IMG/VR virus record: IMGVR_UViG_3300033146_004399
Span: 32,001-96,000 of that record
Source of the DNA: a virus
DNA length: 64,000 nucleotides
Reading direction: 5' to 3' (one strand)
Under the pieces are notes generated by a model, which had not been told where the DNA came from, did not search any database, and saw only the letters and a program-made list of their open reading frames with translations. Both the position numbers and the translations under genes were made by a program. Of the stretch, positions 8,468-32,126 are shown piece by piece (the stretch's first letter is position 1; each line of letters begins with the position of its first letter).

Positions 8468-10060
8468 ATGTTATTAAAAATAAATGATGAAAAAATATTA
8501 AATATTAAAACAACAGATGGTAAACTATTTTTAAATGAGAAAAAGGTAAAAAAATATGATAAAATTGAATATAGGTGCGATAAATGTTCAATTACGGAAA
8601 CCATACATTATAGATATAATAAAAAATTTAATAATCATATAATTCTTTGTACAAAATGTGCTCGAAAACAAACTAATATAGAACACTTCGGTGTAGAAAA
8701 TATATCACAATCTTCTATTATACAAAAAACTATAAGAGAAAAATCAATAGAAAAATATGGCACTAAGCATTTTCTATCTTCACCTAAAGTAAGAAAGAAA
8801 ATAAAACAAACTAATATAGAGAAATATGGTGTAGACGAAATATTTAAACTAAAAGGTTTTAAAGAAGAAACAAAAAAAATTATGATTGAAAGGTATGGTG
8901 TTGAGTATTCTCTTCAATCTAATGAAATTAAGAATAAATATAAAACTACAATGCTTGAAAAATATAAAGTAGATAAACCAATGCATTCTACTATTATTAA
9001 AGATAAAAGACGTTTAACTATACAAAGCAATATTAAAAATGAATTGATGAATTTCAAAGAATTCGAACCTCTTTTTGCACTAAACAGATTTCGTGGAATA
9101 AATCATATCTATATGTGGAAATGTAATAAATGTAATTCAAAATTTGAAGACCATCTTAAAAATGGACATATACCTAGATGCCCTAAGTGTTATCCTCGTA
9201 ATATTAAAATAGATAGAAAGGTAAATAATCTTCACGAGTGGTTAAAGACATTAAATATAGGAGAAATACAATTAAACAATAAAGAGTTAATTAAACCTTT
9301 TAATATAAGTATATATCTCCCTAATCATAATTTGGCTATAGAGTTAGTAAGTCTTTATTGGCACTCTGAGATACAAGGCAGAAGTAAAGATTACCATTTA
9401 ATTAAGTCATTACGTTGCTCTGCGCAAAACATTCAAATGATTTATATATTTGAAGATGAGTGGGTTTATAAACAGGAAGCCGTTAAATCTATTATAAAAA
9501 GAAAATTAAATTTAATCACAAACAATATAAATGCAAAAGAATGTAAAGTTGGTATTATTAGCAACAAACAAGCAAAAGCATTTTATGTAATAAATAATAT
9601 TAAAAGTTTTATATATAATAAAATTAATATAGCTCTTTTTTATAATAATGAAATTGTAAGTTGTTTAAGTATATCTAAACCTAGATTTAATAAAAATTAT
9701 AACTGGGAAATAACACGTTTCTCTAACAAAACAGATTTATATATTATAAATGGTTTTAATAAAATGTTGCAATATTTTAAGAAAGAACACAATGGTTCTA
9801 TTATTGCTTACGGTGATTGTCGTTATTATGATTCTAATATATATGAGAATAATAATTTTGAACATATTAATCAATCTGAACCAAATTATCATTATACAAA
9901 TTATGTAGAGAGATTTGCAAGATTTAAGTTTAATAAAAAAAAGTTGAAAAAAATAATTACAAATTATAATCCTAATTTAACTGAATGGCAAAACATGCAA
10001 CTAGAAGGGTGGGATAGAGTATGGGACGTGGGTAATGATGTTTATGTTCTCATTTCATAA
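8468..10060 (+). CDS. Free-standing homing-endonuclease-like protein (KYG repeats + Vsr/Hef-like nuclease + C-terminal domain)
   Basis: CxxC motifs, T-x-x-E-K-Y-G repeats, IYLPNHNLAIE...YWHSE...IFEDEW, C-terminal WEITRF...GWDRVWDVGN as in Hef-like phage endonucleases. Confidence 0.75.
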   Translation: MLLKINDEKILNIKTTDGKLFLNEKKVKKYDKIEYRCDKCSITETIHYRYNKKFNNHIILCTKCARKQTNIEHFGVENISQSSIIQKTIREKSIEKYGTKHFLSSPKVRKKIKQTNIEKYGVDEIFKLKGFKEETKKIMIERYGVEYSLQSNEIKNKYKTTMLEKYKVDKPMHSTIIKDKRRLTIQSNIKNELMNFKEFEPLFALNRFRGINHIYMWKCNKCNSKFEDHLKNGHIPRCPKCYPRNIKIDRKVNNLHEWLKTLNIGEIQLNNKELIKPFNISIYLPNHNLAIELVSLYWHSEIQGRSKDYHLIKSLRCSAQNIQMIYIFEDEWVYKQEAVKSIIKRKLNLITNNINAKECKVGIISNKQAKAFYVINNIKSFIYNKINIALFYNNEIVSCLSISKPRFNKNYNWEITRFSNKTDLYIINGFNKMLQYFKKEHNGSIIAYGDCRYYDSNIYENNNFEHINQSEPNYHYTNYVERFARFKFNKKKLKKIITNYNPNLTEWQNMQLEGWDRVWDVGNDVYVLIS

Positions 10061-10498: not shown

Positions 10499-13400
10499 TT
10501 ACCAATCTTCCATCCTTATACCTTCAATATAGTTTGTATCTGCGAAAAGGGTTATTTTTAATATAATTAAATAACTTGAATTAGCTGTGTTAAATATACC
10601 AGAAGTCCATTCATAACTCTCCCCTTTGTTATGTATTAGACAACCATCACCATTGGCACCTGTAAAATCTGCTTCGTTATATAAGGTGGCTAAATCCAAC
10701 CAACCAGTAAGACCCGGAAGTTTTATTTCAGCTTTTATATTTGAATCAGCATTGTAAAAATTCTGTATTATTAACTTTCCATTACTGTGTGGATTTGCAT
10801 GATGAAAAACACGATAATAATATTTAGGTCCTGAACAATTCTCATAATTAACAGTTTGTGAAGGGAAATAATTTGTGAAATTTTGGTTAGGATATATTAG
10901 TCTCCCTCCAAAAACTTGTAAATCATCTGGTGTTAATTGTTGTTCAGAATTCCATTGACCAGTATATGCAGTGATAGAATTATAATCTCCATGAAGAAGA
11001 CGATAATATTCATCTACAAATTGTTCTGTTAAAGGTGTTGATTTAACATCTACAGTATTGATTAAAATTTGAGTATTTGTTTTAGAATGTTGTTGAACAC
11101 CAAATGGGTTTTTTGCTTCCAATTTTAAATTAGGTTGAGAAGAATAAACACCGCTCAACTCTAGTTCAAGTGTATTCATATAATATATATCTTCTCCTAT
11201 TCTTGTAACTGGAACACCAAGAATATTAATATCTTCATAGTTTATATAGAAGGGAGTAATCCCAAATTCATCTAAATTGAGAAATATTTGTTCATCTTTT
11301 ACAAATGTATTATTGAATAAATTTTCAACTTTAAAACGGAAACGCAATTTATCACCCATAGAATAATATCTAACTCCAGATAAATATTTATTTGAATTCA
11401 ATTCCATCTCATCTATATATATTTCTTTGAAACCCATATATCCATCAAATTCGTCCCAAAAGACAGTGAAATCTTCTGTTGAATTTATATCACCTGCTGA
11501 ATTACCTATTTCATGTACCAATTTAATATTATTTTCCCCTTGCAGTAAAAGTCTTGATTTTATGTTAAGTTGAAAATCTGCTCTCTGATATATAGGATAT
11601 TGATTATAAGGACCAACCGAAAGAATTTCTATGATATTGTTTAAACCAAATTGTCTAGGATATGTTTGTCCATTTATTCTTTCATCTTCATTAAACCATT
11701 CAGCTAAATTGAATTCATCAACTTGCTCACCGTTTATGTAACAATATAAAATACCTTTGTCTGCGTCTTTAAATTGTGTAACATCATTGTTAGAGAGAAT
11801 AAAAGATGTATCTTTTATTATTTTATTAAAATAATCTCCTGCTGCTAAAGTATTATATCTTAATATAGACCTACCTTCTGAAAGATAACCAGAATATATT
11901 TTAGTACCAGTTATAGCAAAATTACCAGATAAAGGTTGAGCATCTTTAGGCTTTAAAGATTCTAATAAATTTAATCTTTCTTCCATAGTTCCATGATATT
12001 CATCAAGTTCTGATTTAGGATAATAACGTGCGTCGTGGTCATCAACTATTTCCCAATCTTCATCTCTTAATTCCTCATGAATAAGATCTACATCTGCAAT
12101 TATAGGTTTCCATTCCCTATCCCAAGCAAACCATCGATACAATTTATTTTCATTTAATACAAGACGTAAATCTCCTTCACCATTATTTGACATTGGAAGG
12201 TCTGTGACATTATTTACTAAATCTCTTAGATAAGATGAAGAAGATGCACTCGTTACACGAATCCATTCATTTTGTGTTGAACTCCATCTATAAAAACTTT
12301 CTTCAGAAATTATAAATACAACAGTACCATTAGATAACGTATTAGATTCTATTTCTAACAAATCATCAGAAGTATCTACGGGTGGTAACCAACTACCACC
12401 AGTTGACCCAGATATTTTAACCCATTCTTCTTGAGCTGAAACCCATCTATAAAGGGTTGATGAATCTAATACCATTCTAATATCACCATCAACATTTAAA
12501 GAAGTCGGTAATTGTGTAAATGAGTTTACAGGATCACGCCATATAGATGAACCATTTGGGTCTCCGACTAGACGCCATTCACCAGGAGGATCAACCCATT
12601 GATAATAAGCACCAGGGGACGGCTCTTCCACAAAATATATATCTCCGTTTTCTACATCAGGTGGAAATGGTAAATCACCATATACGGAGACAGTTCCATA
12701 ATCGCCGCTTTTAGCAAAACTTCTTAAGAAAACTACTAAGTTTACTTCAGAGTCTATTGCTATATTCAAGTTAAATCTTATTTTATATATATCAAGTAAT
12801 TCGTAATCACCTTCATCTTCTGTTAAACCTTGATTTTTAAACTCACCATCAACAAATACCATAAGGTTTGAGCCTGTAGAATCAAACGGAGCTTCAGATT
12901 CAAATAATCTTCTTTCAAAGTCTAAACTTTCTCCACCTTTGAAAGTAGTAACCCATGCAAGTGTGTTAGGCGGAATAGAAGGACCCGTTGGTGTTGTAGT
13001 TACAGCTTTTTGTGCTGTTCCTCTAGGCCCTGAATGCTGTGCAGTAGAATCTCCTCCAAAAGGGAAAGCAGCAGGATTTTGAGGTTCGCACTCCTCGGAC
13101 ATTGTATCACTTCTATCATAATCACCACTTCCAGCGTTCACATCATATGCTTTAACTTTATAATATGGATGTGTTATTGTAGCTGGATCTACATCGTTAG
13201 GTATTGGGTCCACATCACCATCTATAATATAAGTTAGGACCTTCCCGGTATTCGCGTCAATATCAGTCATTGTATAATTAGTATTACTAACTTCTAATTT
13301 ATTCCATGTACCTTGTTTTGTTTCAGGGTCGTAATCATCACTTTTCCAAACATCATAACCGTTGCAATGTGTTTGTCCACCCCACGCAACCAACCAACCA

Positions 13401-15157
13401 CCAATTTCCATTTCAAACGTTGTTTGGTTCATAACAGGGTAAGCTTCAATACCAACTATTATCGGAGTTGGTATAAATTTAGGTTCTGTTATACCAAACA
13501 TATATAACTCTTCTTCAGCTTTTTTCAACTTCTTTTCCATAATGTCAATAGCCATACCAGTAGCATTTACTGCTGTTTTAGAACCTTCATTGGGATCTAC
13601 AATAGATCTAATCCACATAAATCTATGACCATATAAAGTTAAAGGATTATCTATTGTACCAAATATAGAAGTACTATCTATTGCAGCTCCTAAAGCAGTT
13701 ACTGTCGTAAGAGCCCCTAAAAGGTAAGCTTTTATACTAATTAATTCTTGATCCACAATATTACGCGCTGAAGCATTGGTAAGAGAAGAACCATTTTTAT
13801 GCACATCAATAAAATCAAGTGATTGTTGTATTCTATCTTTTATCGTTGTTAATGTATTTATCCATCCATTTTGTAAATTCCATGAAAAACCTATATTACT
13901 ATTTACATCATCTGGATCATAATTTGGGTCTATGCCTGGTATAATCATATAATTAACAAAATATGTAAAATTAGTTATTTTAGTATAATCAATATAAGTT
14001 ATTATATCATTTATTTTAGAAATAATAGCTAACGCAGCTGAATCATATGATGAAGTCCAATAATCTTGAGATGGAGTATAACCTGGTGGATATGAGTATT
14101 GTGTCCCATTAACATCCCAAGTTCCATTACCAAACACCGTTTCTCCATCAACGTCATGAGTTAAAAACCCTTCAGTGCGGGGGGTATTAATAGCATTTGG
14201 AAGATTAATAATTCCAGGAGAATCATTAATCTCTAACAAACTAGTAGCATCAGTACTAACAATATTATTAATAAGAATATTATTTGTTTTATCGGTACCA
14301 CTACCAAAAAAAGAAAATGTTCTTGTTGGCTCAGTATAAGTATAAGGCGCGACGTCTCTATGCCTTATACCTAAAAGAGTATTATTAGTATAATAAGTAT
14401 ATGGAACTGGAGAAGAACCATAAGATACCGATTTTATATGAGGGCCAACAGGACTCTCTGTACCTATAACTGCAAGAAGATCATCAATTTTACCAAGAAG
14501 AGACTGTGACCTTTCATCTGGAGGATATATCCAAATTAAACTTCCAGGCGTAGGGCCTGGAGGATCATACCAAATTTGATATTTATCTCTGTTAATAGTA
14601 AATGAAGTACTATAATTTGGTTTGCCTAATTGTGAAGCTAATGTTGTCCACCCTTTAGTCATAGGTACATCAAATTCACCTTTTCTTCCTCGGCTTAATA
14701 CGTTATTTAATTTTATTTTCGTAGTTGTGTTACTGGTATTTGCAATTTCTGATTCTAATGTCTTCCAGCCGATATAAAAACCTGATTTATATCCTTGACC
14801 ATCTGTAAGATTATTAGCAGCTGCCCGTAAACCAGATCTTTCTGTCGAATTATGAGAAGTAAACGAAGTATTATTACCACCTTCTTTAATTATATTATTT
14901 CTTACTGTACCCCGAAGTTTATATATTATTTCGTAATAACATCGTATTAAGCCTTCAACGCCCATACTTGTCCATGTAATATTTTCATTTCTTGAATAAC
15001 CAAATAAAAGACCTAAATTAAATAAATCTTCATCAGCCATAGAATCAATTGGGGGAGCAACAGAACCATCTCTTGCCATCAATACATTTAATTTAGCCAT
15101 AAGAGCATCAGAACGTTTTTGTTTCAGTTCAAATTTTCTTTCATTTATTGTTGGCAT
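10499..15157 (-). CDS. Large virion structural protein (1552 aa); FN3-like segment, four Trp-rich repeats, C-terminal region paralogous to 41743 ORF
   Basis: Long ORF with SD GAGGTG; W-x-x-PV..DLP..GD.R.V...YRW repeats; GSNLMVFVDG module. Confidence 0.75.
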   Translation of the reverse strand: MPTINERKFELKQKRSDALMAKLNVLMARDGSVAPPIDSMADEDLFNLGLLFGYSRNENITWTSMGVEGLIRCYYEIIYKLRGTVRNNIIKEGGNNTSFTSHNSTERSGLRAAANNLTDGQGYKSGFYIGWKTLESEIANTSNTTTKIKLNNVLSRGRKGEFDVPMTKGWTTLASQLGKPNYSTSFTINRDKYQIWYDPPGPTPGSLIWIYPPDERSQSLLGKIDDLLAVIGTESPVGPHIKSVSYGSSPVPYTYYTNNTLLGIRHRDVAPYTYTEPTRTFSFFGSGTDKTNNILINNIVSTDATSLLEINDSPGIINLPNAINTPRTEGFLTHDVDGETVFGNGTWDVNGTQYSYPPGYTPSQDYWTSSYDSAALAIISKINDIITYIDYTKITNFTYFVNYMIIPGIDPNYDPDDVNSNIGFSWNLQNGWINTLTTIKDRIQQSLDFIDVHKNGSSLTNASARNIVDQELISIKAYLLGALTTVTALGAAIDSTSIFGTIDNPLTLYGHRFMWIRSIVDPNEGSKTAVNATGMAIDIMEKKLKKAEEELYMFGITEPKFIPTPIIVGIEAYPVMNQTTFEMEIGGWLVAWGGQTHCNGYDVWKSDDYDPETKQGTWNKLEVSNTNYTMTDIDANTGKVLTYIIDGDVDPIPNDVDPATITHPYYKVKAYDVNAGSGDYDRSDTMSEECEPQNPAAFPFGGDSTAQHSGPRGTAQKAVTTTPTGPSIPPNTLAWVTTFKGGESLDFERRLFESEAPFDSTGSNLMVFVDGEFKNQGLTEDEGDYELLDIYKIRFNLNIAIDSEVNLVVFLRSFAKSGDYGTVSVYGDLPFPPDVENGDIYFVEEPSPGAYYQWVDPPGEWRLVGDPNGSSIWRDPVNSFTQLPTSLNVDGDIRMVLDSSTLYRWVSAQEEWVKISGSTGGSWLPPVDTSDDLLEIESNTLSNGTVVFIISEESFYRWSSTQNEWIRVTSASSSSYLRDLVNNVTDLPMSNNGEGDLRLVLNENKLYRWFAWDREWKPIIADVDLIHEELRDEDWEIVDDHDARYYPKSELDEYHGTMEERLNLLESLKPKDAQPLSGNFAITGTKIYSGYLSEGRSILRYNTLAAGDYFNKIIKDTSFILSNNDVTQFKDADKGILYCYINGEQVDEFNLAEWFNEDERINGQTYPRQFGLNNIIEILSVGPYNQYPIYQRADFQLNIKSRLLLQGENNIKLVHEIGNSAGDINSTEDFTVFWDEFDGYMGFKEIYIDEMELNSNKYLSGVRYYSMGDKLRFRFKVENLFNNTFVKDEQIFLNLDEFGITPFYINYEDINILGVPVTRIGEDIYYMNTLELELSGVYSSQPNLKLEAKNPFGVQQHSKTNTQILINTVDVKSTPLTEQFVDEYYRLLHGDYNSITAYTGQWNSEQQLTPDDLQVFGGRLIYPNQNFTNYFPSQTVNYENCSGPKYYYRVFHHANPHSNGKLIIQNFYNADSNIKAEIKLPGLTGWLDLATLYNEADFTGANGDGCLIHNKGESYEWTSGIFNTANSSYLIILKITLFADTNYIEGIRMEDW

Positions 15158-16229
15158 TTAACACCTCTAATATATTTTCTATATTATATTTTTCATTAAA
15201 GTATAATATATTCACTTGTTTTTTTATTTCTTTCATTTTCCACTTAAACTTATCATCCCAATAATAATTTGAATGAGGCTCTAAATACAAATCATAATCA
15301 AGCAAATAAAAGTCTGGGGCATAAAGTCCATCTAATTTATTTTCTTTTTTATATTTTATAAATTTTAAACCATTATGAGCAATAAAATTTATATTATTAT
15401 TTACAAGAAATTTTGCAACTTTTAGTTCGAACTTACCTTGTACTTTTTGACCATTTATATTAAACCATGCACATTTATTGTTTGAATTATTCTCTCTTGC
15501 AGTTTTCATCATTTTTATCTTAAATTCATATAACTGAGCCGGTCTCTTAACACCATATTTATTCATAAAATAAGATGTCATCCTGTCTTGCATGCCTTCA
15601 ATCTTTGAAGGGTGAGTAACACCATAATTATTATATAATGTTTGTTTACATTTCTCTTTTACGTCTTTATTCTGTAATGAACATTTAGTACCATACTTGT
15701 CTAAATTGGTATTTTGTGCTTTTAATATATTATTATATTTTTTATTTCCGTATTTTTTTAATTTAGTTTCTTCAGATTTATTTATTATAATTTTATTACC
15801 TAAACTACAAATATTACCGTATCTTTTTAAATTAGTTTTTTGTGCTTTTTTGAGTAATTTATTCGATTGTCCACTATATTCAACACCATATCGTTTTAAC
15901 ATTGTTTTAGTACGTTTCTCTGTATTAAAAGCTAATTTACCGTTATTATTTAATCTTTGAGTATTTTGAGCTTTTCTAGATATATCTTTATTCATCATAC
16001 AATTTTTAACTCCATAATTTAACATGTGCACATATTCAGTTTGATGTTTTTGACATAAACATTTCTCATGTTCTTTATAAAATTTTTTAAAACGCTTGAT
16101 GGCTTTAGATACTTTTATCCCGCATTCTTCACATATAATATCTAAACGGTCATAATTATTAAGTTTTTTACCATTTACATATATACAATTCTGCTTCAGT
16201 TCAAATTTTCTTTTATCTATTGTAGGCAT
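15141..16229 (-). mobile_element. Homing-endonuclease-like gene (KYG repeats + PD-(D/E)XK domain) fused to a copy of the downstream gene's first 13 codons
   Basis: QGKFELKVA...YAPDFYLLDYDLYLEPH nuclease motif; starts MPTIDKRKFELKQ versus MPTINERKFELKQ of 15157 gene. Confidence 0.8.
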
Positions 16230-16283
16230 TTATATTTTCCTAAATATTTTATATGATTTTATCTTTACCAAACAAGATAAATT

Positions 16284-16367
16284 TATAGTGAATTGTAAAA
16301 GATTAAATATATAGTGAATTGTAAAAGATTAAATATATAGTGAATTGTAAAAGATTAAATATATAGT
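16284..16367 (+). repeat. Three perfect 26-bp tandem repeats plus a partial copy in a divergent intergenic region
   Basis: TATAGTGAATTGTAAAAGATTAAATA at 16284, 16310, 16336, then TATAGT. Confidence 0.95.
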
Positions 16368-16385
16368 AAATGATTAGGAGTTAAA

Positions 16386-17924
16386 ATGTCAATAATAGTA
16401 AATAGAATGATGGCCTTAGAATTAGAATTTGTTAATTCAGAAGCGTTTGGATATATCGCTTGGTTCGATGTACCACCAGAACCGGAAAACGAAAACGACC
16501 CAATAATACCTCAAACGCAAGTCGCAACACTTGGCTTGGGGTCTACTACAGATAAATTTATAACATGGTCTTTAGCTGAATTAGATTATATTAAAATAAC
16601 AGGTGGAGGCTTACAATTTGATTCTACAGCTTGGTTTAAAACAAAAAATTCAAAACCTCAGTTTAATGAATATGGTGATCCAATAGAAGATAAAATATTT
16701 ACAAATTGTAAAGTTAGTTTTAATCAAGATCTTACAGGTATGGAATATGCATCATATTTACCGATTGGTCCTGATTTAACTATAGACCCAGAGAATTATA
16801 CAGATGAAGAAAAAAGATATGAAGAATTAAAAGCTATAAAAGAAGAATATGCTAATAATAATACAGCTCTCCTTATTGAACATGAAAATGCTATAGCTTT
16901 TTCTAATCCTGTAACTGGCAGACTTATAGGTTCTATAGATACTGTAGGCGAAGCATTTAATTGGTATGGTGCTTTCTCCTTGGGTTCTGAAACAGAAGAT
17001 TCAACATTTGAAGTTAAAAGAGTTGACGTAAATAAATTTAATATAACTCTTAATGCTGATACTAATTTAATGCCAGAATTAGCTTTTAAATATGAAAATA
17101 TTAAGTCATGGAGTATTTATATGGATACAGACCTTCATATAAAAAATAATAATGATAATGGAATAATAATAAAAAACACTGAAATAGAATTTACTGGCGA
17201 GATAATTTATCAAGATGTATTTTTATCAGATTATTTTTACGCACAAACTGAATTAAATGACGGAATACTAGATGAAAGATATTATACTGAAACTGAATTA
17301 AATGACGGAATACTAGATGAAAGATATTATACTGAAACCGAATTAAATGACGGAATACTAGATGAAAGATATTATACTAAAACTGAAGTTGATGATATAA
17401 TTTCCGCATTAGATTTAAATTCTTTAAAACCAATATATTATGAATTTATAAATGATGAATGGGTTGAGATTACTCTTAATATTACTGATGAATATTATGA
17501 TCTTCAAAATGAAACTGTAGAAGATGACGAATATTGGCTGGCAGAGTTAGAAGACGATATTTATAAACGTGTATCTGATTCTTGGGTCTCAATTATTCAA
17601 GTCGAAATAACATATCCAGAACTTTTACCTCACGTTTTAGTAATAGGAGAAACTGGAATTACTAATGATAAATTATATGAATGGAATGGGAACAATTGGC
17701 AATTTATTAAAAATGAAAATGAATTAACATATACTATAGTATTACACAAATCAGATATTATTGATCCTATGGAAGGCGACGAATTTAAAATCAATGCAAC
17801 AAATAAATTTTATAGATACGAAAATGGTGAACTTGTAATTATGGATACACCACATCCTCTATATGATAGTCTTCCGTCACAATATGACATTATTAATAAA
17901 GTAGTAAAATACTCATTCACATAA
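16386..17924 (+). CDS. Acidic probable virion protein (512 aa) with 3x 15-aa repeat
   Basis: SD AGGAG; TELNDGILDERYYTE repeats resemble fibre D-x-RYY motif; C-terminal Trp/Tyr repeats. Confidence 0.7.
   Translation: MSIIVNRMMALELEFVNSEAFGYIAWFDVPPEPENENDPIIPQTQVATLGLGSTTDKFITWSLAELDYIKITGGGLQFDSTAWFKTKNSKPQFNEYGDPIEDKIFTNCKVSFNQDLTGMEYASYLPIGPDLTIDPENYTDEEKRYEELKAIKEEYANNNTALLIEHENAIAFSNPVTGRLIGSIDTVGEAFNWYGAFSLGSETEDSTFEVKRVDVNKFNITLNADTNLMPELAFKYENIKSWSIYMDTDLHIKNNNDNGIIIKNTEIEFTGEIIYQDVFLSDYFYAQTELNDGILDERYYTETELNDGILDERYYTETELNDGILDERYYTKTEVDDIISALDLNSLKPIYYEFINDEWVEITLNITDEYYDLQNETVEDDEYWLAELEDDIYKRVSDSWVSIIQVEITYPELLPHVLVIGETGITNDKLYEWNGNNWQFIKNENELTYTIVLHKSDIIDPMEGDEFKINATNKFYRYENGELVIMDTPHPLYDSLPSQYDIINKVVKYSFT
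17245..17379 (+). repeat. Three near-perfect 45-bp in-frame tandem repeats
   Basis: AAACTGAATTAAATGACGGAATACTAGATGAAAGATATTATACTG x3, only single substitutions in copy 3. Confidence 0.95.
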
Positions 17925-18127: not shown

Positions 18128-19231
18128 TTATCCATTTAATAGTTCCTTAATTTTTTCTATATTATATTCTTCATCAAAGTAAAATATCTTTACTTGTTTC
18201 TCTATTTCCTGCATCTTCCACTCAAATTTATCATCCCACCAATATTTAGCATGTGGTTCTAAATATAAATCGTATTCTGGTAAATAAAAATCTGGGTGAT
18301 AATAATGTTTATTACCATCTTCTGCATAATATTTTATACTTTTTAATCCTTTATGCGCTATAAATTTAATTCCATTTTTTAATAAATAATTTGCCACTTT
18401 TAATTCAAACATACCTTGGAGCTTATGGTCTTCAATTAAATACCACTTGCATCTACCACCTTTCCCCCACGAATTATTTTTGTTTTTAGTTTTGCGGATT
18501 TTTTGTTTTATTTCTTCAATTTGTGTACAACTTTTTGCACCATATTTTTTTAACATTGTTGCCTGCGATTTCAACATCATATCAGCTACAACTTTTGGGT
18601 CTTTCATTCTATGTTCATAGCCATATTTCTCAAGATTAGTTTTCTTTATTCTCTCTTTTATTTCTTCAGATTGAAAACCATTTTTAACACCATATTTTTT
18701 AATCATACCTTCTTCTAATAAATCTCTTCTCTTTAATATTTCATTTACACCGTATTTCTTTAATACGGTAGCTGTTTGCTTTTCTTTTAATTCTTTATTT
18801 TGTGTCGCGTACTTTACACCATATCGTTTTATCATAGTATTTTCTTGTTTCATTTTAACATCTTTAATTTGTAAAGCATGTTCAACACCATATCGTTTTA
18901 ACATGGTATTTTTGCCCTTATTTTTTACATCTTCAATTTGCATAGGATTAGAGACACCATACTTTTCCATATTGGTATGTTTCTGCTGACAAGCTTTACA
19001 ATATTGTTTCACATTAAGGAAATTTTTATTATAATCAAAATAAGACTTAAATTTTTTTTTACATTCATCACAAATGTATATTACTTTATCTCTTTGAGTA
19101 AGATTAATTTTATTATTTATAAGGAGTGTTTTTACTTTCTCTTTTCGATGGTAAGGTAAAAAATCTACAATATTTATAGATTTAATATCTACTATTTCTT
19201 TAGTTTTATACAATTTAATTTGTTTTATCAT
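18128..19231 (-). mobile_element. Homing-endonuclease-like gene (KYG repeats + PD-(D/E)XK), leaderless start
   Basis: QGMFELKVA...YHPDFYLPEYDLYLEPH; paralog of 15141 and 20214; AAGATAA-N4-ATG with no SD. Confidence 0.8.
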
Positions 19232-19260: not shown

Positions 19261-20235
19261 TTAGATCACAATTCCTAAACTTTTAACAATTCCATCCGTT
19301 ATAGATTCCATTTTAGCTGCAGCAGGAGGTGGCAATGTAGGCATTTGTGCTCTAACACATTCTAACATTCCACCTATAGCTAGACCTATAGGGAGGATCA
19401 TTGGACATGTAATCCATTTCCCTAACATTTGTCTTACTTTATCTGTTATACAATTACCTTTAGGGAGTACAGGGAGAGTTGGTAAAGATGGAGGATCTGG
19501 AAGATCAGGATAGTATGGTACAGGAACTTCAAAATCATCTGCATAATCTTCCAAGAATTCCCAATCTTTTTTTAATTGAATAAGAGTTAAAGGGGTTATT
19601 CTTTTGACAGCTCGTTCCATTTCCCACACTTCCAACTTTTTATTCATAATTTCTATAGTTATAAGGAGAATGGCAACAAGCCATTCATCAAGAGAAGTTA
19701 TCATATCTTGCCATGTTTGTGACATCTCTTCGTTACCTTCCTCTTCTGCAGCTTTAGCTTTTTCTGAGTATTTAAATACTGTATCTTTATATTTAGCTAA
19801 TTCTGCAGCTTGATAAACCTTTAATTCATCCATCTCAATATATATTTCTGGTATTCTTTCTTCATATTCTTTGAGTTGAATTTTCATTTTATCTTGAGCT
19901 TCTTTTTCGTCTATGTAGAGTTTTTTTAATGCAGCAGCCCTTTGCGTTTTTGCTTTTCTCAATTGTTTAGCATACATTTCAACCATTTTCTGAATAATTT
20001 TAGCAATTAATTCAAAAAAGAAATTTATTAAATACTCTAACAATTGTAAGATAAAAGATATTGCAGCACCGAAAGGGATTGCTGGTATTGCTATAATACC
20101 CATAGGTATAAGCCCCATAGAATCCATTATAACTTCAGATATAGTTTTAATACCTGCAACAAGGATTGGAGGAGCTGCTGCTGTAAAATCTAAGCCTAAT
20201 TTAATCGCTTCGCCTATGCTGGGTAGAACCGGGAT
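19261..20235 (-). CDS. Coiled-coil, Pro-rich probable structural protein; start proposed at ATC 20235 rather than ATG 20127
   Basis: Frame open 36 codons upstream of 20127; SD GGAGGT 6 nt before ATC CCG GTT; ATG 20127 lacks an SD. Confidence 0.65.
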   Translation of the reverse strand: MPVLPSIGEAIKLGLDFTAAAPPILVAGIKTISEVIMDSMGLIPMGIIAIPAIPFGAAISFILQLLEYLINFFFELIAKIIQKMVEMYAKQLRKAKTQRAAALKKLYIDEKEAQDKMKIQLKEYEERIPEIYIEMDELKVYQAAELAKYKDTVFKYSEKAKAAEEEGNEEMSQTWQDMITSLDEWLVAILLITIEIMNKKLEVWEMERAVKRITPLTLIQLKKDWEFLEDYADDFEVPVPYYPDLPDPPSLPTLPVLPKGNCITDKVRQMLGKWITCPMILPIGLAIGGMLECVRAQMPTLPPPAAAKMESITDGIVKSLGIVI

Positions 20236-21392
20236 AGTAGTACCTCCTCTATATTATATTTTTCATTAAAGTATAATATTTTCACTTGTTTTTTTACCTC
20301 TTTCATTTTCCACTTAAACTTATCATCCCACCAATACTTAGCATGTGGTTCTAAATATAAATTATATTCAGGTAAATAAAAATCTGGATAATAATTACTT
20401 TCTACATTATCTTCATTTAAATATTTAATTGATGCTATATTATCATGTGTAATAAATTTAATTTTATTTTCTACCAACCAGTTAGCTACTTCTAATTCAA
20501 AAGTACCTTGTATTTGTTGCCCCTCTATTTTAAACCATTTACAGGAATTTTTAACAGAAGTACCATAACGTTTTAACATTGTTTCTTTTGATTTATCAAG
20601 CCGGGCAATTGAAGTAACGCCATGATTTTTAATAAATGTTTCTTGCCTCCGCTTAACTATATCAGGATGTTTAGAGGGGTTATCAACTCCCCAATTATTT
20701 AACATAGTTTGTTTCATTTTGTCTTTTACCTCTTTCAGTTGTGTAGTGCTTTCAACACCATATTTATTTAAGTTGTTTTCTTTTATTTTATTTTGTATTT
20801 CTTTTGATTGTGACGGGTTTTCTACACCCCAATTATTTAACATAGTTTGCTTTATTTTATTTTGTATTTTTTCCGATTGAAAAGGATTTTTCACTCCGTA
20901 TTTTTTAAGATTAGTTTTCTCCATTTTTTCTATATTATGGTATCCTTCATTACCATATCTCTCTAATTTAGTTTGTTTAATTTTAACTTTGACAAAATCT
21001 AATGTATTTACATTATTTGTTCCATACTTCTTGTTTATAAGATTGTTATGTTCTTTAGTCCCATAACCATAAGCCACTTTTGAGCCATATCGTTCTATAC
21101 ATGTTTGTTCTGTTTTGTCTCTTACTATTTTTGATTGTGTTGGCCATTCAGTACCATACTTATTTAGATTCGCTTCTTTTCTATGACATTTGGTACATAG
21201 AATTTTATCATTCCAGTATCTTGGTCTTCGTTTGAATACAGCCTTTTCTTCTTTACCACATTCATCACACTCAATAACAATATAATCAATAGCATTTATT
21301 TTTTTATTATTTACATGAATGTTTTTATCATCTATAACTATATTGCCTTTTACTGTCTCGTTTGTTTTTCTATCTATAAAATATTTTATCAT
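20214..21392 (-). mobile_element. Homing-endonuclease-like gene (KYG/NWG repeats + PD-(D/E)XK)
   Basis: QGTFELEVA...YYPDFYLPEYNLYLEPH; 3' 83 nt nearly identical to 15141 gene. Confidence 0.8.
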
Positions 21393-21544
21393 TACATTCT
21401 CCTATAGTAGGTATTACAGGATTATCTTAGTAAAAAATAATAAAAAGTGGTATTTTCCAAAGCATATCTTGTTATGAAATGACAGATGATAAAAAAGCTA
21501 AAAAATGCTTACAGACTCCATACTGAAAGTTTTATATTTTTTGA

Positions 21545-31872: not shown

Positions 31873-32126
31873 TGTTCTATCCTGTATATGAAAATGACAA
31901 TAAATTAATTGTTGCTATATTTGAATTTACTGAAGATGATATAAATTATGAACCTGCACCGGCAAGTGGTTCCGATTATGATGAATATGTTTATTCAGAT
32001 GATATCAATGCAATAAATTATGTTGGTAATTTTAATGAATGGGGAGATTATTATTTAGAAGATAACGTTAAATGTAATACTTTTTATGATGCTCAAATTA
32101 TGTTAATACAATGGGTTATTAAGTGA
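31872..32126 (+). CDS. Acidic hypothetical protein
   Basis: TAATG coupling. Confidence 0.65.
   Translation: MFYPVYENDNKLIVAIFEFTEDDINYEPAPASGSDYDEYVYSDDINAINYVGNFNEWGDYYLEDNVKCNTFYDAQIMLIQWVIK

Follow-up and report, generated by a model that had tools for sequence, protein, structure and literature searches.

The window analysed here is a stretch of 64,000 nucleotides (nt) of viral DNA (IMG/VR record IMGVR_UViG_3300033146_004399, positions 32,001 to 96,000 of that record), to which all coordinates refer unless another contig is named. On its minus strand an endonuclease open reading frame (ORF), termed HEG1, precedes and slightly overlaps a much longer ORF, termed the big gene, and the two begin with nearly the same 13 codons, the leader. 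The features on which the argument depends are the following.

15141..16229, minus strand: HEG1, 362 amino acids (aa), with the captured leader, a Cys-rich beta domain, KYG-type helical repeats (DUF7487) and a predicted C-terminal nuclease domain.
10499..15157, minus strand: the big gene, 1552 aa, conserved (homologues P0002-P0015), in a tail/baseplate module, the proposed host of the insertion.
16189..16229, minus strand: the upstream leader copy (13 codons and 2 nt), the in-frame N-terminus of HEG1; its junction recurs in the lineages L015, L016 and L017.
15117..15157, minus strand: the downstream leader copy, the big gene's own 13 codons (and 2 nt), near the family consensus.
15141..15157, minus strand: the 17-nt overlap of the two ORFs, with the HEG1 stop inside big gene codons 5-6.
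15162..15167, minus strand: a Shine-Dalgarno (SD)-like GAGGTG within Glu-Val codons of HEG1, 4 nt ahead of the big gene ATG.
16230..16241, minus strand: the native ribosome-binding site (RBS) region of the big gene (AGGA, 8 nt, ATG), now that of HEG1, homologous to the GGAG..ATATAA-ATG of alleles that have no endonuclease.
16259..16280, no strand assigned: an inverted repeat, TTATCTT-N8-AAGATAA, forming back-to-back promoter-like motifs of a divergent gene pair and conserved in 10 loci.

HEG1 opens with MPTIDKRKFELKQ and the big gene with MPTINERKFELKQ, such that 34 of the 39 nt of the leader are identical and, among the five differences, three are synonymous (CCT/CCA, AAG/AAA, CAG/CAA) and two are not (D/N, K/E), exactly as a preliminary description made from the sequence alone had reported. 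At the local base composition the binomial chance of a match this good (at least 34/39) is 3.8e-14; in a comparison of start flanks with stop flanks the leader pair reaches a score of 29, the highest of 300 random comparisons being 14, and a repeat finder independently recovers the pair as family D2 (66 nt, 79% identity). The repeat runs from about -4 (TAAATG) to +41 and its similarity ends abruptly at both edges. Beyond residue 13 HEG1 aligns with its paralogues, some 22 native N-terminal residues having been lost, in keeping with the earlier statement that its N-terminus had been replaced. At the other end of the gene the C-terminal residues of HEG1 (ANNK plus stop) are the 5' end of the big gene read in another frame. 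The same description assigned the SD of the big gene to the 3' codons of HEG1, where GAGGTG is indeed found, but placed it in the last codons, whereas GAG GTG are codons 355-356 of 362. This overlap would fit translational coupling from HEG1 to the big gene. The window's HEG1-side leader also carries a cluster of three differences whose significance is weak (P 0.04 per 39 nt), so that gene conversion between the two leader copies is at most suggested. HEG1 lies outside any intron or intein, the big gene having a complete start of its own downstream, and an Rfam search of 14800-16600 (E<=1) found no group I or group II intron and no other RNA family.

One question then is to which of the two genes the leader originally belonged. 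It is present in all 14 big-gene homologues, endonuclease-free and distant ones included, as MPT..ERKFELKQKRSDALMAK, the start pattern being MPT[ILAV]..(R/K)(K/R)FELKQKRSDALMAK or a recognisable distant form of it, and in every homologue it is followed by the conserved KRSDALMAK. Among 108 HEG1 homologues only three start with MPT, all of them the same fusion at the same locus, while the other 105, paralogues included, start otherwise, for example with MIKYFIDRK. The occurrence of the leader in all big-gene homologues and in no free endonuclease shows that it is native to the big gene and was taken by HEG1, the direction of capture originally proposed; a free endonuclease natively starting MPTI, named at that time as evidence that would count against capture, was not encountered among these homologues.

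The unoccupied state of the locus is represented by seven endonuclease-free alleles (L010, L012, L014, L018, L019, L020 and L028), each with one copy of the leader. No second copy of the 39-mer is found in any of the seven, the best background match being 20-25/39, and the 5' regions of relatives without the endonuclease thus hold no pre-existing duplication, the other finding that would have spoken against the proposal. Six of the seven (the exception being the distant L019) have, ahead of the big gene, TTATCTT(T)-N6-8-(A)AAGATAA, then GGAG, then ATATAA-ATG, and those six, where the flank is long enough, also a divergent gene of about 500 aa. In the window the inverted repeat and RBS sit upstream of HEG1 and not of the big gene, so the claim that the element had taken over both promoter and start is borne out as regards the position of motif, RBS and ATG. 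The motif itself is probably a promoter element of this phage group, conserved in relatives: of the 138 copies of AAGATAA in this genome, 30 stand 6-60 nt ahead of an ORF start where 3.8 would be expected (P 1e-18), the average for permuted control motifs being 5.5%. Examples lie at 16265(-), 19242(-), 21428(-), 8430(-) and 46641(+), and the motif precedes all three nearby endonuclease genes. None is found near the ATG of the big gene, the closest being 364 nt upstream, inside HEG1. Sigma-70-like promoter matches do not exceed expectation for AT-rich DNA, and no terminator-like sites are found in 14900-16500.

The arrangement is not confined to the window. A survey of occupied and empty loci gave four lineages that carry HEG1, against the seven empty ones, the endonucleases of the three further carriers being related to that of the window as follows.

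L017: 97% identity, NCBI assembly.
L016: 59% identity, Logan assembly.
L015: 57% identity, JGI contig of 479,626 bp.

All three show the native upstream block, then the endonuclease with the same junction as the window (KQ|N.IYV), then the big gene with an overlap of 14-17 nt, and the SD again lies in Glu-Val/Ile codons of the endonuclease (GAGGTG in L016 and L017, GGAGAT in L015). In the paralogue HEG2, which is not followed by a gene on its strand, the SD position reads GAACTA. The endonuclease is present on 12 of 12 contigs bearing an L015-type big protein, from a phage assembled to about 440-480 kb; the contigs of the fusion-carrying relatives (L015 and L021-L024) measure 437-480 kb, and on this ground the window belongs to a huge-phage lineage. 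Between L015 and L016 the endonuclease orthologues share 77% protein identity with a ratio of nonsynonymous to synonymous divergence (dN/dS) of 0.064, a value which places the chimeric endonuclease under purifying selection. In a quick maximum-likelihood tree of the big protein endonuclease-free lineages separate the window from L015, such that the distribution is patchy. Other searches returned little: a GenBank phage nucleotide search with 13500-17500 gave one weak, irrelevant match and an IMG/VR protein-pattern scan one distant locus (L001), while a degenerate DNA pattern of the 13-codon leader had no match in viral or metagenome contigs, collections that seem to be without the known relatives, and a profile scan of metagenome contigs had none in a collection that seems to lack the relatives known from the protein database.

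The closest pair of carriers differ in a way that depends strongly on the distance from HEG1.

14760..16390, no strand assigned: a tract about 97-98% identical between the window and L017 within flanks of about 80%, delimited by identity profile and synonymous divergence (dS), read as a recent exchange or co-conversion.

Along the locus identity is 75-87% in the divergent gene of about 500 aa, rises to 92-100% over some 1.6 kb comprising the intergenic region, HEG1 and the first ~400 nt of the big gene, and falls to about 79% in the big gene from ~14760 onward. Likewise, dS is 0.05 in HEG1 and 0.14 in codons 1-133 of the big gene, and 1.33 in codons 134-200 of that gene and 0.58 in the divergent 512-aa gene. 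Since this tenfold drop in dS goes beyond what protein constraint would produce, it bears the signature of a recent exchange, between two diverged phages, of a block centred on HEG1, as would be expected of homing with co-conversion.

What HEG1 encodes is indicated by family and fold. The protein matches Pfam DUF7487 (PF24308) with 84.4 bits (gathering cut-off 27, E 1.4e-23), as do all 20 aligned HEG1 homologues, and matches two PHROG families named "homing endonuclease"; a literature search found no paper mentioning DUF7487. An AlphaFold model has a mean confidence (pLDDT) of 77.5, rising to about 90 in the C-terminal domain.

15144..15473, minus strand: predicted Vsr-like PD-(D/E)xK nuclease domain (residues 253-362), from structural alignment of the model.

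In VIA-align structural alignments residues 253-362 match Bax1 (Z 9.6), the catalytic domain of I-Bth0305I (3r3p_B; Z 9.3, root-mean-square deviation 2.5, 86/98 residues aligned), the DUF559-like 3hrl (Z 8.9), TnsA (Z 8.3) and Vsr (Z 8.1). D306 and E317 are invariant in the alignment of 20 family sequences, H319 is invariant among the seven closest homologues, and more distant members of the family match Pfam MTES_1575, DUF559 or TnsA_N. Taken together, the fold matches, the invariant residues and the Pfam matches of distant members lead us to predict a Vsr-like PD-(D/E)xK nuclease. The sequence of HEG1 is less informative in this respect: a PDB search with the family profile gave weak nuclease matches only and one with a narrow C-terminal profile nothing meaningful, and Foldseek alone returned no match to the model below E 0.01, the clear matches coming from structural re-alignment.

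HEG1 is one of eight DUF7487 ORFs in the 179-kb virus record, two nearby paralogues lying at 18128..19231 and 20214..21392 (HEG3), whereas in named or cultured phages (Lak megaphage, E. coli jumbo phages) its homologues are distant only. The 3' ends of HEG1 and HEG3 share a stretch of about 83 nt at about 96% identity (15178-15260 and 20248-20330), the remainder being about 70% identical, and at two sites within that stretch the HEG1 of L017 matches HEG2 instead; such a pattern suggests gene conversion among DUF7487 paralogues within one genome. A systematic nucleotide-level test for flanking direct repeats at the other seven DUF7487 genes of the genome was negative.

These observations are best accounted for, we believe, if HEG1 is a free-standing DUF7487 homing endonuclease lodged in the 5' end of a tail-module gene by duplication and homing, a reading to which we assign a probability of roughly 0.75. 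On this reading the promoter-like motif, RBS, ATG and first 13 codons of the host gene would now drive HEG1, which, having lost the ~22 native residues, would be made as an N-terminal chimera, while the 13 codons repeated at its 3' end keep the host gene whole. The big gene would then be translated from the SD in the Glu-Val codons of HEG1 across the 17-nt overlap, its transcription probably being read-through from the one promoter upstream. A single origin of the fusion is envisaged, for which the likeliest mechanism is illegitimate or one-sided recombination at microhomologies, with about 45 bp of the target duplicated. The right junction lies in TAAATG, a motif common to the 3' end of HEG2 (TTA AAT GGA TAA) and the start context of the big gene, ATAAATGCC; the left junction lies in an A-run, where the big gene has CAA AAA CGT and the paralogue, at the homologous position, GAT AAA AAC. 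Since on the target the right junction is upstream of the left one, about 45 bp are duplicated. Such junctions would fit template switching at microhomologies or one-sided repair of a break, after which selection would have favoured an endonuclease that is in frame and expressed. Purifying selection would have maintained the fusion since then, and homing would have carried it, with co-converted flanks, as one block from phage lineage to phage lineage.

A second duplication of a 5' end, unfused in this case, flanks HEG3 both in the window (20127-20250, 21393-21430) and in L015 (1340-1421, 2380-2450). In endonuclease-free relatives the gene found downstream of HEG3 (a 324-aa family) starts ATG CCA GTA ATT CCA (MPVIPTLNEA) behind AAGATAAT. 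In the window a relic of this start, CCT GTA ATA CCT ACT ATA GGA GAA (PVIPTIGE, ~8 codons, no ATG), is left between AAGATAAT and the HEG3 start, and its counterpart in L015 forms a mini-ORF of 12 codons, equipped with AAGGAG and starting at TTG. The conserved N-terminus of the downstream gene begins, in either genome, ATC CCG GTT CT behind GAGGAGG, inside the 3' end of HEG3, which suggests that ATC (20235 in the window) serves as its non-canonical start. This duplication alone has no significance at the nucleotide level, being visible only by comparison of peptides and relatives, and it may represent an earlier stage of the route taken by HEG1.

Several points weigh against the proposed duplication and homing. 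Between distant lineages the divergence of the endonuclease is of similar size to that of the host gene, and vertical descent with precise loss is consequently inseparable from ancient homing. The junction microhomologies are short and lie within AT-rich DNA. In place of the canonical E-x-K or IE.HG..WH of distant members the HEG1 subfamily shows E-P-H, and nuclease activity is for this reason not assured. Lastly, the exchange tract is drawn from one genome pair and from a single 3.4-kb contig with about 200 nt of right flank, and ordinary homologous recombination could also be its source.

The last point is part of an alternative that we hold to be unlikely, namely that HEG1 has been domesticated, is immobile and is kept for the translation of the big gene through the SD and coupling, the tract reflecting ordinary phage recombination. 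The strong purifying selection on HEG1, the stability of the arrangement on 12 contigs and the location of the big gene's SD in HEG1 3' codons would all follow from domestication, and the 530-aa DUF7487 gene that lies downstream of the big gene is kept in six closer relatives, if not in L019. Against this stand the patchy presence of HEG1 among related phages with clean empty sites, the centring of the low-dS tract on HEG1, and the eight paralogues in the genome, typical of an active selfish family.

A further alternative, carried over from the preliminary description and in our view improbable, is that the big gene was restored with a deliberately variant copy shielding the carrier from its own nuclease. 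The window's two copies do differ at 5 of 39 nt, three of them synonymous, and free-standing phage homing endonucleases are known in which variation of the target sequence makes the carrier immune. The first half of this proposal holds, the gene having been restored with a complete copy of its own. That copy, however, does not look recoded: it has the consensus codons and residues of the family, and the diverged one is that of HEG1, which in the window shows E6K, residue 6 being E or D in 13 of 15 big-gene sequences. In L017 the two copies are 37/39 identical, differing only in the last two codons, and L016 and L015 have 8-9 differences between theirs, mostly synonymous; from +1 to +60 no position distinguishes endonuclease-bearing from endonuclease-free alleles, and carrier genomes keep codons 13/14 and the sequence across them intact. 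With a consensus-like gene copy, no discriminating site and an intact codon 13/14, immunity by recoding is unsupported, and a target that includes the leader region would have to span both junctions, unless immunity has another basis. The HEG1-side leader of L016 (1001-1039 of its contig, the counterpart of 16191-16229 in the window) is nearer to the gene-side copy of L015 (7935-7973; 34/39, with the rare CGA and CCT shared) than to its own neighbour (31/39), which hints that leaders changed places between the gene side and the HEG1 side when phages exchanged DNA, over a stretch too short to judge.

That the shared start was native to HEG1, or was copied from it by the big gene, or is a convergent translation-initiation signal, is scarcely credible: leader residues 10-12 are modelled as a beta-strand packed into the N-terminal domain of HEG1, which speaks for such a reading, but the leader and KRSDALMAK occur in every big-gene homologue, the paralogues and the 105 other HEG1 homologues start differently, and the nucleotide identity is far above chance. 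An assembly artefact or a private recent tandem duplication, which would have in its favour only the general risk of metagenome assembly, can be dismissed, given the same architecture in independent JGI, NCBI and Logan assemblies.

As to the surroundings, the big gene matches no Pfam or PHROG family and an ESM Atlas search with it returned nothing; its reading as a virion gene, a reasonable inference from context, is made because it adjoins a gene for a tail-fibre protein and one for a 2300-aa protein. Its earlier naming as an essential virion gene is drawn from context, namely the tail-fibre neighbours and conservation. A role of the leader as a tag for targeting to the virion was considered and set aside: the host gene lies in the tail module, and packaging signals have nothing in their support. 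Just downstream, on the opposite strand, a 530-aa DUF7487/'homing endonuclease' gene (8468-10060, plus strand) is kept, at 532-537 aa, in the six closer relatives extending past the big gene (L010, L012, L014, L015, L018 and L020), and an unrelated 205-aa gene takes its place in the distant L019. Either the big gene is bracketed by endonuclease-family genes in the manner of a 'HEG island', or the 530-aa copy has been domesticated. On the other side lies the divergent partner.

16386..17924, plus strand: divergently transcribed gene, 512 aa, with homologues of about 500 aa in relatives.

At about residues 285-335 its product contains three near-perfect tandem copies of the 15-residue unit TELNDGILDERYYTE, and between the inverted repeat and this gene (16278-16371) a 26-nt unit, TAAATATATAGTGAATTGTAAAAGAT, stands in three tandem copies, an array that in L017 is shorter by 52 nt, that is, two units.

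On a bolder and less likely reading, the direct repeat of ~41 bp would let a homing endonuclease occupy the coding start of an essential gene. The duplicated codons would give HEG1 a host promoter, RBS and start, and hence late, host-matched expression, the translation of the big gene would be tied to the 3' codons of HEG1, and recombination between the repeats would excise HEG1 scarlessly and regenerate a cleavable empty site; the unfused HEG3 relic would be a step that came earlier on this path. It is tempting, if speculative, to see here a third route besides introns and inteins, with its own cycle of gain and loss and recurrent in the DUF7487 family of huge phages. A selfish nuclease gene invading the coding start of a conserved structural gene with neither intron nor intein would in any event widen the known modes in which homing endonucleases coexist with essential genes. 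The locus also offers a defined pair of empty and occupied sites for target finding in a predicted Vsr-like endonuclease family abundant in huge phages, and the tract, if it is a co-conversion, would be direct evidence of such elements moving DNA between uncultured huge phages. For annotation and proteomics it carries a warning, in that adjacent proteins can have a common N-terminal peptide and a downstream RBS can lie inside the upstream ORF.

Among known systems, the nearest in fold is the 'EDxHD' or Vsr-like homing endonuclease family with I-Bth0305I, reportedly discovered by Dassa et al. 2009 (PMC2677866) and treated by Taylor et al. 2011. HEG1 and I-Bth0305I (PDB 3r3p) would share the Vsr-like C-terminal catalytic fold, and both are phage-borne, multidomain and associated with essential genes; however, I-Bth0305I is encoded within an intron, HEG1 by a free-standing gene fused to host codons, and the latter adds KYG-type repeats of DUF7487 and an E-P-H motif, no literal EDxHD string being seen. 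Its sequence has no significant match to I-Bth0305I or to other PDB chains.

Free-standing phage homing endonucleases near essential genes, with tracts of high identity around them, are well described, including the 'HEG islands' (PMC10448857). Like these and the T4 seg/mob genes, HEG1 is patchy in occurrence at a fixed site beside an essential-looking structural gene, has a high-identity tract between diverged genomes and is accompanied by multiple paralogues in its genome. The known phage cases are intergenic with a start of their own, or split a gene, whereas HEG1 uses the start and codons of its host, and a literature search found no described endonuclease taking the start and first codons of a host gene that keeps a duplicate, nor this combination of a 5' duplication in a phage structural gene with a new host-gene RBS made of endonuclease codons.

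Endonucleases of mitochondrial group I introns are commonly translated as fusions to the upstream exon (review PMC3943268). As in these intron ORFs, the endonuclease at our locus begins at the host gene's start as an N-terminal fusion to host codons; in the mitochondrial case the host gene is restored by RNA splicing, and here by DNA duplication with no intron, which makes splicing unnecessary.

For the likely origin of the duplication a further parallel comes from T4, where Parker, Belisle and Belfort in 1999 reportedly described illegitimate, 'one-sided' double-strand-break repair in intron homing. Such repair would join one side by homologous recombination and the other at a microhomology, duplicating target sequence, and offers a mechanism that could serve for HEG1, but the T4 case is experimental, with limited exon homology, whereas ours is deduced from short junction microhomologies.

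A further likeness is to the duplicated gene ends beside mobile endonuclease ORFs in fungal mitochondria, as in Allomyces atp6 (PMC4019555) and in the C-terminal duplications of atp6 and cob (PMC6279837). In both settings a partial duplicate of a host gene end flanks the endonuclease ORF, one copy being functional and the other left behind. The fungal duplications concern the 3' end and leave a pseudogene fragment, whereas that of the HEG1 locus concerns the 5' end (-4..+41), and its leftover copy, together with promoter and RBS, appears to be reused as the start of the endonuclease, which the fungal leftover is not. The HEG1 arrangement is well supported as a form of free-standing homing endonuclease that mirrors, at the 5' end, the fungal mitochondrial gene-end duplications.

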